Virus record (IMG/VR): IMGVR_UViG_2531839675_000021 | Source: a virus | Taxonomy: Duplodnaviria > Heunggongvirae > Uroviricota > Caudoviricetes | Length of the DNA: 4,237 bases | Strand: one strand, 5' to 3' | In this document: positions 1 to 3,000 of the stretch, piece by piece | How positions within the stretch are numbered: position 1 is the stretch's first letter | Layout: every line of letters starts with the position of its first letter | Made by a program: the position numbers

Positions 1-3000
1 TCAAATGACCAGTTTTTTCCATTCCTTACCGCGTGCGTCGTTGTAAATATCGGTCATTTTTTGATTCGAATGGCCTAGCAAAATTTTGGTATCAACCCCC
101 TGCTCTCTGAACAATCGCTCTGATAAAGATCTCTGCTCATGGAAAGAGGGAGGGGTGCCATTAGCACGCCAGTTGTAATCCACAGAATCCCGGGCTTTTT
201 TAAATGCAACGGTTAATGTTGCTGGCTTAACCATCCCGCCGCGCTTAGCTGTCCCTTTCGCGTGATGGTGGTGCAATAGCCACGGACTAAGAACGCAATC
301 GCGGCAGGATGACACCACATCATCCAGGGTGAGATTTAATTTATCGCAACGCAGAGCCAGAGGGATGGCAATCCGGGTTCCTGTTTTTTGCTGTTCGACA
401 TGAAGATAACCATCCCGGATATCCGAAAATTGCATTTTGCAAATATCTGAAAGGCGCTGGCCTGTCATCAGTGCCAGCAGCATACCGCGCTGTAAAAAGT
501 AACCATCCTTTTCCGCTGCGTTATAAATCATCATCCACTCATCAAAAGTCAGTCGCTGTCTTGATATCCGCACCTGCGGTTTTTTTGCCGATTCTGCAGG
601 GTTAAAGCCTGGCGGGACATCGCCCGTTTGCTGAGCTTCCCGGAAAACATCGATCAGTACTTTCCTGAAAATTTGTCCCATTCTGTTATGTCCTCTGGCC
701 TTGTACTCTTCCAGTACTGATACCACATCTTTTACGGTTATGGCATCTAACGGTCTGGTGCCAAAACGTTCATCAAATACCCTGAGAGGGGCCGCTTTCT
801 GTTTCAGCGTGTTGAGTTTGATCTCGCCGTTTTCATATCTTTCCTGTTGAATTTTTCTGTAATTATTCAGAAAAATGGTAACGGTTGATGAACCGCCGGT
901 ATCACTAATAATTTTCTCCTGCAGACTGAGCATTTGTTCCATTTGCTGCCGGGCAAGACGGCTGTTCGCTTCTGCTGCAATAGTTTCTGCCAGTTTCTGG
1001 TCAATACTGCCGAGACCGTGATTTTTGCCTGTTATGGGATGCCTGTAACGCCAGTAAACTTTGTTATTTCTTTTGTCAAAATACGGAGATAATCCCGGAA
1101 CATCGGTTTTATATTTTCGCGGGCGCGCCATCTTCCAGTATCCTCTTCAAAGCAGGGTGATCTGTGGCGATCACCTCCGGCTTGTTTACCATTCCGACAA
1201 AGCGAGCTTGCGGATCCACTCGCCAGCGTCTTCCAACTTTTTTGGGGAGAGGAAATATCATTCCGGCTTTAGCGTATTTACTTAACGTACTCGGAGTTGG
1301 GACCGGTTCACTGAATTCCTCTTTTGCCCACTCAGTGAGCAGAATAAGTCTTGCCATGAGCGTCGTTCGCTAATCATGGTCGCCGCCACTATAGCTGGTG
1401 GGCAACGACCGGGGTTGAACATTAAAAATCAGCCTGATTCGGGATCAGTTTTTGCCAGATAACTGAAACGTATTTTGCCTGGTAACGGGCGTCATCAAGT
1501 GCATTATGGCGCTCACCTTCGAATGGAATAGCCGTTCTGGCATCGAAGTCTATGGCTTTCCCCAGCTCAACGATTGTGCGTACATCGCGATCGTTGTAGT
1601 AACGCCACGGGCAGGGGATCCCCTGCCGTTCGTATGAACGGCGCAAAATCGTGTTGTCGAAGTTGGCTCCATTTCCCCAGACCTGAACAAAAAATTCACC
1701 GGAGTTTTCGTCGATAAATTCCCGCAATTGTAACAGTGCATCATCTAACGGGATTTCATCGGTCATAATGGCAGATTGCGCTTCGCGTGATTGCTTAAGC
1801 CACCATTTAATGGTGTCCCTCGCCGTGTGCTTTCGTGTTGTGTGCCTGCTTTTTACCACGTCAGGCGAGGTGGTCCCCGTTATTCCCCAACAACAAGGAT
1901 CTTGTTAATCTGGATATCCCCAACAACAATAAGAGTATTGAATGTGATCGCTGAATTAACGGCAGCAATGACGGCTATTCGTGAAACCGCCCAGATTGCA
2001 AAACTAATGAACGAGGCAAAAACTCAAGCTGAAGTAAATGCGGCTATTGGTGAACTGAACTCAAAGCTTGCATCTATTCAGCGCGAATGCGTGTCTCTCG
2101 TTGAGCTGGTGGGCACTTATCAAGAAATAAATGCTTCTCTCAAAGCTAAAATTGCAGAATTTGAAAACTTTGAGGCTCAGACGGAAGGTTATATCCTTAG
2201 CCAACTTGAGTCGGGAACTTTTGTGTACTCGAAGGAGGTAACCGTGAACGGCGGCAGCATAATCATGCATCTTTGTCCAAAATGTTTTGGACAAAAGATA
2301 GTATCGATACTTCAGCCATTCCCGGTTAGAGAATATGAATTTTTTCATAAAAGCAGGTGCCTGTACTGTGAAAATCAGTTTCTTATGAATAAAAATCCGG
2401 ATTACGTATCACCTCCATCTATTGAAGAGTTGGCCAGAAAACTGAACGGCAATCTGTAGATTTTTACTGTTATGGATATCCAGATTGTTAAAGAGCATGC
2501 CGGATGCTTGCTTGTGTCCGGCGCGTGTGCACCACTCTCCCCCCGTGGAGGATTCCTTAATTACCAGATTTCATTAGTCAGAGTTTCTTGCTAACCAGCG
2601 ACGCGCGCCAGATTCGGTTTTAAACGTTTTGCTTTTGGTATACGTCATCGCGGTGAACGTGCCGTCCTGGTTGGGAAACACGCCGCACACCAGAGATTCG
2701 TTGTTGCCAAGATCAAGAGTATCCATGCTGACCTCATATCCCCTTAACGCCGGGGTAGCGGAACAAAAACCTGCTGCATAGTTAAAGTTGAACCCTGCCG
2801 TCATGTTCTTACGCCTCGGGCTGGCTACTTAATCCCTGACCACTGCCGGGTAACTCTAGGTATTGCCCTGTATTGTGTGGGACGGGATGGGTTGGTATGG
2901 GAAAACTATAGGAAATGCCTAATTGCTTGTCAATAGGCTACGCCTAATGATTTGGGTGCGACCTAATAGGTGATGGTTTGTGGGAGAGGTAGTAGGAGTT

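Follow-up and report, generated by a model that had tools for sequence, protein, structure and literature searches.

Why does a prophage carry two identical copies of a short sequence directly in front of a gene from a protein family of unknown function? The question is raised by a viral DNA of 4,237 nt (IMG/VR virus record IMGVR_UViG_2531839675_000021, Caudoviricetes; the whole stretch is called here "the window"), which is the left arm of a lambdoid prophage and contains a rightward orphan gene, referred to below as the cargo gene, preceded by two direct copies of TCCCCAACAACAA (Table 1). An earlier note on this DNA had described the copies as paired 12-bp direct repeats. Reading of the sequence and a repeat search bear this out, with one base more than was noted: the repeat is 13 nt long, its copies are 100% identical and their start-to-start distance is 33 bp. 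No further copy with two or fewer mismatches was found in the 4,237-nt window, and since the exact recurrence of a 13-mer within about 50 nt is expected ~0.003 times in 4.2 kb (4237 x 50 / 4^13), a chance origin of the pair is unlikely even before its conservation is considered. With GTG at 1944 as the start of the cargo gene, copy 2 ends 14 nt before the start codon. Our analysis leads to the conclusion that the repeats are real, conserved and almost certainly functional, and that they very likely belong to a regulatory module already known, since 1993, from phages P22 and lambda, namely that of the gene sieB and its antisense RNA sas. The window is a new member of this sieB/sas module, with a different repeat sequence and a cargo other than SieB.

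The sieB-esc locus of P22, with the sas antisense RNA, was reportedly described by Ranade and Poteete in 1993. A 2026 paper lists the sequence of P22 sas as a read cluster of 127 nt (PMC13397905). The reverse complement of this sequence consists of a core shared with the window, two copies of ACCCCTACAG located 34 bp apart, and then the start codon of sieB. The P22 database record (BK000583) annotates a sieB promoter (TGTACC...TAAACT), sieB together with the internal esc reading frame, and a "sieB RNA start site" at the A immediately 5' of CCCC in the downstream repeat copy. According to this annotation copy 2 of P22 corresponds to positions +1 to +10 of the sieB mRNA, and copy 1 to positions -34 to -25, where it overlaps the -35 hexamer. 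As later papers summarise the system, SieB is produced in the lysogen, and superinfecting P22 produces sas, which pairs with the sieB mRNA and stops the synthesis of SieB while that of Esc continues. P22 sas is an RNA of ~105–127 nt that is actually produced and represses translation of its sense gene. A promoter scan recognised no promoter for sas inside P22 sieB.

The window resembles P22 and lambda in four respects. First, alignment of the three sequences reveals a homologous 30-nt core directly to the left of the window leader. Second, the element has the leftward early genes on one side and the immunity region on the other, with its gene opposing the early leftward operon: the order exonuclease(-)/element/cargo(+)/DUF1391(-)/racR(-) of the window parallels orf28(-)/sieB(+)/N(-) in lambda, where the sieB/sas element takes up the 124 bp that separate orf28 from sieB, and P22 shares this layout. 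Third, by alignment with P22, one repeat copy would be situated at -35 and the other at +1, with a TAnnnT -10 element between them. Fourth, a minus-strand hairpin with a GGGG loop can be formed over copy 1. There are also clear differences from P22. The repeat is of the CCCCAACAAC type with a spacing of 33 bp rather than of the CCCCTACAG type with 34 bp, and the antisense RNA, an observed molecule in P22, is at the window locus a predicted one. The cargo is a coiled-coil/zinc-ribbon protein of the phrog_1244 family rather than SieB; it gives no match to the SieB family in Pfam, although SieB is recognised among other cargos of the module, and an Esc-like internal start is not evident in it. 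Because its cargo is not SieB, the window belongs to the regulatory module family and falls outside the sieB-esc gene system. Rfam contains no match to the region 1836-1950 on either strand (permissive cmscan of 1600-2700, E up to 10).

Scans of public viral contigs and of one genome per species, with patterns that specify core bases only, identified ~240 loci with the same architecture, lambda and P22-like ones included, in Escherichia, Salmonella, Klebsiella, Citrobacter, Enterobacter, Edwardsiella, Proteus, Providencia, Morganella, Xenorhabdus, Photorhabdus, Pantoea and other genera. The core is almost invariant across these Enterobacterales prophages. The genes downstream of it fall into ~38 protein clusters in the sample, and among the ten cluster representatives that were scanned against Pfam SieB alone was recognised. 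A block of ~92 bp (1836-1927) is common to the window and to SfIV, Kati, F1055, PhiR29_1 and Kp4882-1, Klebsiella phages being among its carriers, and it lies there upstream of unrelated genes. In Salmonella phage F1055 it is 78% identical to the window, in SfIV, Kati and others 87–88%, and the ribosome-binding site at which it stops belongs to a different gene in each of these. Among 122 distinct leaders, a direct repeat of 8 nt or more occurs in 55. In these two-repeat leaders copy 1 begins no more than 14 nt from the core (8–12 nt in the listed cases) and the copies are spaced 31–37 bp apart, 33 bp in 38 leaders and 34 bp in nine. We could distinguish at least five families of repeats: CCCCAACAAC, to which the window belongs, CCCCTACAG (lambda and P22), TTCCACAGTCAA (Proteus and Xenorhabdus), CCCCAGCAA and CCCCCACAA. 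Both copies are alike in each of them, while the sequence between the copies has diverged. A TAnnnT motif ends 5–8 nt 5' of the C-run of copy 2 in all but one of the two-repeat leaders (54/55), as it does in P22.

The same scans returned short, low-coverage contigs assigned to Nocardioides, Enterococcus, Vibrio, Paenibacillus, Colwellia and others, which contain the exact upstream region of lambda sieB (loci L155, L158, L159, L162, L170, L171, L173, L178, L202, L206, L207, L209 and others); this looks like contamination of those assemblies with lambda DNA. The record MW057783.1, named "Campylobacter phage CJLB-4" (48,361 bp), has the lambda sieB region at 34300-34400, compared with 34380-34480 in lambda itself, which suggests that it is essentially lambda.

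At copy 1 the selection is visible at the level of RNA. In all but one of the 55 two-repeat leaders (54/55), the segment from the core to just beyond copy 1 folded into a hairpin of higher stability on the minus strand, with a mean energy of -8.5 kcal/mol compared with -4.3 kcal/mol on the plus strand, 71 G·U pairs compared with 8, and a mean z-score of -2.1 against shuffled sequences. As the sense transcript of P22 begins 3' of copy 1, this hairpin belongs to the antisense RNA. The 38-sequence alignment (A3) was unusable for deriving a single consensus structure, since bulges shift the register between repeat families; covariation was assessed on an 18-nt alignment anchored at the loop and comprising 21 distinct upper stems, with the TTCCACAGTC family, which has a 6-nt loop, left out. 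In this alignment 88% of the cells are paired, and in five of the seven pairs both sides show changes. Covariation scores 0.52, compared with 0.28 in shuffles, none of which (0/500) attains the observed value; the slid controls collapse. In the four C-run families the GGGG loop does not vary, and one pair of the hairpin appears as G·U in 11 sequences and as G-C in nine. The differences between the two copies are also skewed, 19 to 5 (p = 0.007), toward the direction in which copy 2 and the complement of copy 1 can still form G·U pairs; the sequences are related and the analysis window was picked after the fact, and the skew lends weak support to such pairing.

We consider it probable that the repeats are built-in parts of a sieB-type module, in which a plus-strand promoter and leader overlap a minus-strand, sas-type antisense RNA. 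Judging by homology to P22, copy 2 would form the extreme 5' end of a cargo mRNA that starts near 1917 from a weak promoter. Copy 1 would overlap the -35 hexamer and the spacer of this promoter; as minus-strand sequence, it supplies the GGGG loop and the 5' arm of what is predicted to be a stable antisense hairpin. The earlier note had correctly located TTGTTA (1902-1907) and AACAAT (1925-1930) and named them as weak -35 and -10 candidates, but these hexamers do not align with those mapped in the P22 promoter, and a transcript initiated from them would begin 3' of the Shine-Dalgarno sequence. A lysogen would express the cargo gene in the rightward direction. Upon derepression, the leftward early promoter at 2933-2905, presumably controlled by RacR, would fire, and the leftward transcripts would cross the gene in antisense orientation and give rise to a sas-like RNA. 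The minus strand of 1840-1950 covers the complement of the start codon, the Shine-Dalgarno sequence, copy 2, the -10 element and the copy 1 hairpin, and ends in the core; by count, a sas of the 105 nt quoted in the literature would likewise end at the core. Such an RNA could pair with the start codon, the Shine-Dalgarno sequence and the 5' end of the mRNA and switch translation off. The exposed GGGG loop may nucleate this pairing on the 5'-terminal CCCC(-ACA) of the mRNA, from where it would spread down the arm. The two copies would then be unable to drift apart, because the antisense hairpin, made of the complement of copy 1, must match the mRNA 5' end, made of copy 2.

A comparable logic operates in IS10, where the 5' end of RNA-IN pairs with the loop of RNA-OUT and the pairing extends down one arm and blocks the initiation of translation. 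The analogy is one of logic only, in that the 5' end of an mRNA would meet the loop of an antisense hairpin first; IS10 has no sequence relationship to the window module. It also differs in that two-repeat leaders encode the putative recognition hairpin outside the sense/antisense overlap, ~33 bp upstream, and for this reason the direct repeat would be visible in the DNA.

Several observations weigh against an antisense module of this kind, or against parts of it. Full complementarity of the antisense RNA to the mRNA is already provided by the complement of copy 2, hence a second recognition site is not strictly required. The whole antisense region of 109 nt folds no better than shuffled sequences (z = -0.62), so that support from folding is limited to the copy 1 hairpin. 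The 19:5 skew could stem from transcription-associated C-to-T and A-to-G mutation of copy 2. In two relatives (L044 and L090) copy 1 is present and copy 2 is absent. A generic scan of 1700-2700 for promoters and terminators found nothing, for which reason the predicted cargo promoter must be considered weak; it is recognisable only by homology, through which we also infer the start site and the antisense RNA of the window. Finally, given the nature of the cargo and its apparent lack of an Esc-like start, the "translational switch" part of the P22 scheme may be inapplicable here.

Among the alternatives, the one that survives best is that a single protein, a repressor or an activator, binds both repeats at about -34 and +1, i.e. 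three helical turns apart. The identity of the copies, their spacing kept at 31–37 bp and mostly at 33, their joint change between lineages, as expected of a pair of sites, and their position on both sides of the core promoter all agree with it. However, repeats of the same type occur with unrelated repressors (RacR in the window, a LexA-like cI in SfIV and PhiR29_1), and a candidate binding protein linked to the module is absent. The cI operators of SfIV, considered as partner of the repeats, were rejected as they are GTAC-containing palindromes unlike the repeats. DNA binding also does not predict G·U pairs on one strand, compensatory changes or an invariant tetraloop, and we regard this explanation as unlikely. 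Regarding its more specific form, the earlier note had seen in the repeats regulatory sequence upstream of the orphan gene, of the activator or iteron type. The first part stands, in that the repeats are conserved and are part of the promoter and leader of the gene, but the second finds no support. The likeness to the lambda CII site (TTGC-N6-TTGC) or to plasmid iterons comprises short direct repeats, helical phasing and a location beside a promoter. The window, however, has just two direct copies, which by homology to P22 sieB lie at about -34 and +1 and not upstream of the promoter, where an activator would be expected; neither a rep nor an activator gene was found in the window, no replication gene is nearby, and the selection visible at copy 1 (minus-strand hairpin, G·U pairs, covariation) acts on RNA.

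A slightly less likely possibility is that an old tandem duplication of a promoter-leader unit left the repeats behind as a passive relic, and that the copies need not match today. The leaders themselves provide the argument for it. TAnnnT directly follows the core in 39 of the 67 remaining leaders, which are mostly short, single-unit ones, compared with 0 of the 55 two-repeat leaders; in the short leaders it is followed by a C-rich or ACA-containing stretch and then by the Shine-Dalgarno sequence, and in the long leaders a Shine-Dalgarno-like stretch, AAGGA or GAGAA, follows each copy. Two-copy leaders look like a short leader unit to which a second promoter-leader unit was added, with the copies held together since. 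The last point is where a relic fails, for the sequence between the copies has fully diverged and yet the copies are identical within at least five lineages, a pattern that demands either ongoing selection or independent duplications of equal length in every lineage.

It is improbable that the CA-rich repeats (AAC AAC AAN) are mRNA sites for Hfq (A-R-N motifs), for the host small RNA GcvB, or for both. The GU-rich seed of GcvB targets CACAACA-like sequences. In the window, CAACAACA, contained in copy 2, is perfectly complementary over 8 nt to UGUUGUUG in the R1 seed of GcvB; Hfq binds A-R-N repeats beside Shine-Dalgarno sequences, and prophage RNAs of enterohaemorrhagic E. coli (EHEC) mimic GcvB targets (PMC4104026). 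Support for GcvB pairing stops at this 8-nt seed, since the predicted duplex of -18.4 kcal/mol is no better than the mean of shuffled leaders (-22.2 kcal/mol). The families CCCCTACAG and TTCCACAGTC are not GcvB-like and nevertheless keep the two-copy design, and copy 1 lies upstream of the predicted transcription start and thus outside the mRNA. The EHEC anti-small RNAs AgvB and AsxR resemble the window leader in having a prophage-borne, CA-rich 5' sequence with A-R-N motifs similar to a GcvB target. They are encoded downstream of PR', in the moron site of the late region, and have their own terminators (PMC4104026); an identity of the window element with AgvB was rejected on account of this different prophage position. 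As a separate observation, the leader contains four consecutive AAN triplets adjoining the Shine-Dalgarno sequence, which resemble the distal-face motif of Hfq.

The two remaining proposals are refuted by comparison with relatives. One of them, raised in the earlier note, takes the repeats for a scar or a duplicated target site left by the truncation of the exonuclease gene, near which they lie. The truncation junction, however, is 65 bp to the left of copy 1, and the repeats are also found in SfIV, PhiR29_1 and F1055, which lack the truncation and have other genes next to the repeats. The other proposal is a coding role: the frame 1791-2459 has no stop within either copy, and the copies, 11 codons apart, would each specify an SPTT peptide if the cargo protein were extended at its N-terminus. 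This is excluded by an in-frame stop 12 nt 5' of the start codon in 9 of 21 distinct leaders of the same cargo; in addition, the homologous P22 transcript begins at copy 2.

If the repeats are parts of a sieB-type antisense module, they become, by prediction, a promoter, a start site and an antisense regulator that can be annotated for a gene of unknown function, which we found in 658 of 5426 complete E. coli genomes (~12%). The co-varying repeats also offer a clean, testable case of an antisense recognition hairpin encoded away from its target. More tentatively, we propose that the sieB/sas element could be a portable cassette, on in the lysogen and off during the phage's own lytic growth, that stands before dozens of unrelated, mostly uncharacterised genes of Enterobacterales prophages, and that the direct repeat exists because the copy 1 hairpin, being outside the overlap, must match the 5' end of the mRNA. 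The cargo genes would then be candidates for exclusion or abortive-infection functions. The 30-nt core provides a simple sequence flag for this prophage slot with its many unrelated, probably lysogen-expressed genes, and thereby a cheap route to candidate superinfection-exclusion or defence genes.

Table 1. Predicted and annotated features of the 4,237-nt window. Strand: +, rightward; -, leftward;., no strand assigned.
Feature	Position	Strand	Basis or remark
Integrase gene	1-1131	-	followed by excisionase
3'-5' exonuclease gene without N-terminus	1422-1859	-	RefSeq marks N-terminus as missing
Deletion or recombination junction truncating the exonuclease gene	1819..1820	.	limits of matches to relatives
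Predicted sas-like antisense RNA region	1840..1950	-	collinear with the 127-nt P22 sas read cluster (PMC13397905)
Conserved 30-nt core, GCCTG-CTTTTTA-CCAC-G-TCAGGC-GA-GGTGG	1844..1873	.	~240 loci; P22 equivalent is the sas 3' end region
Antisense hairpin, 11-bp stem and GGGG tetraloop (complement of 1885-1888)	1874..1899	-	fold prediction, homologues, covariation
Predicted -35, TATTCC	1881..1886	+	alignment with P22 TGTACC (BK000583)
Repeat copy 1, TCCCCAACAACAA	1884..1896	+	overlaps predicted -35 and spacer; aligns with P22 -34..-25
Predicted -10, TAATCT	1906..1911	+	alignment with P22 TAAACT
Inverted repeat I2, left arm, AATCTGGATATCCCCAACAACAATAA	1907..1932	.	kept with different cargos
Predicted start of cargo mRNA	1917..1918	+	homology to annotated P22 "sieB RNA start site"
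Repeat copy 2, TCCCCAACAACAA	1917..1929	+	predicted first 13 nt of cargo mRNA, by P22 +1..+10
Shine-Dalgarno sequence, AAGAG	1931..1935	+	8 nt 5' of GTG 1944 (sequence)
Cargo ("orphan") gene, 171 amino acids	1944-2459	+	GTG start per RefSeq in identical EDL933 sequence
Inverted repeat I2, right arm, TTTTTACTGTTATGGATATCCAGATT	2461..2486	.	third copy of the repeat unit, inverted and degenerate, directly behind the stop codon
DUF1391 gene	2574-2804 (longest open reading frame)	-	
Predicted leftward early promoter, PL-like, TTGACA-17 nt-TATAGT	2905..2933	-	11/12 consensus matches
racR	3042-3518	-	followed by ydaS/ydaT-like genes

An imperfect inverted repeat of 26 nt, perfect over a 13-bp core (AATCTGGATATCC / GGATATCCAGATT), brackets the cargo gene. 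This reflects a feature of the CCCCAACAAC lineage, which has AATCTGGATATCCCCAACAAC to the left of the cargo and its degenerate complement right after the stop codon. The right arm is located at the right boundary of the transferable block, the homology ending near 2496; in SfIV, PhiR29_1 and most other relatives, as opposed to the window, it is followed by GTTAAAGAG and a conserved terminator. In L044, L069 and L008 the inner parts of both arms differ together, by matched changes, and cognate arms share 12.8 matches compared with 11.9 for non-cognate ones, which is a weak difference. A small minus-strand gene of SfIV has the right arm as its leader. The bracket may serve for long-range pairing in the leftward transcript, act as a mirrored leader, or mark the boundary of a cassette. 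Under the tentative portable-cassette proposal, the inverted third copy of the CCCCAACAAC lineage could set the place at which the antisense RNA is excised via such long-range pairing. The right arm also recurs behind different cargos, for instance at 3243-3268 in L004 and at about 4625-4650 in L002.

The core itself contains interleaved complementary segments, GCCTG/CAGGC and CCAC/GTGG. On the minus strand these, together with an A-rich stretch, would permit an H-type pseudoknot where the antisense RNA has its 3' end; natural variants of the core are few and split, and do not favour pairing on either strand.

The truncation of the exonuclease gene can be placed at 1819/1820, because phages of the PPompW type, in which the exonuclease gene has its full length of 2.4 kb, match the window at 1-1819 and stop there, and matches to HannyBb and mEp460 (1820-1874) begin at the next position. 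PhiR29_1 matches 1836-2496, including the repeats and the cargo gene, in a different neighbourhood that has no exonuclease gene. The window as a whole is mosaic, with 1-1819 identical to PPompW-type phages and 1413-4237 identical to an O157:H7 prophage located beside potC; at least 80% of it in one place was found in none of the complete E. coli genomes of the collection searched.

The cargo protein, of the function-unknown family phrog_1244, consists of a coiled-coil N-terminal half and a C-terminal four-cysteine motif resembling a zinc ribbon (CPKC...CLYC). Phage vB_EcoM-606R2 encodes a protein of 189 amino acids (L010, 2604-3173) with a cargo-like layout and little sequence similarity, behind a leader of the CCCCTACAG type.

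In the immunity region, operator-like palindromes (inverted repeats I1, I8 and I10) flank the predicted leftward early promoter. Palindromes of the form TAGGC-N3-GCCTA are present on both sides of racR (2905-2952 and 3541-3621), where they overlap strong divergent promoters, TTGACA/TATAGT on the minus strand (2933-2905) and TTGACA/TAATAT on the plus strand (3586-3615). The longest open reading frame of the DUF1391 gene encodes 76 amino acids, of which RefSeq, in the identical EDL933 sequence, annotates the last 50 codons only; the Pfam match to DUF1391 spans residues 28-75 of the 76.

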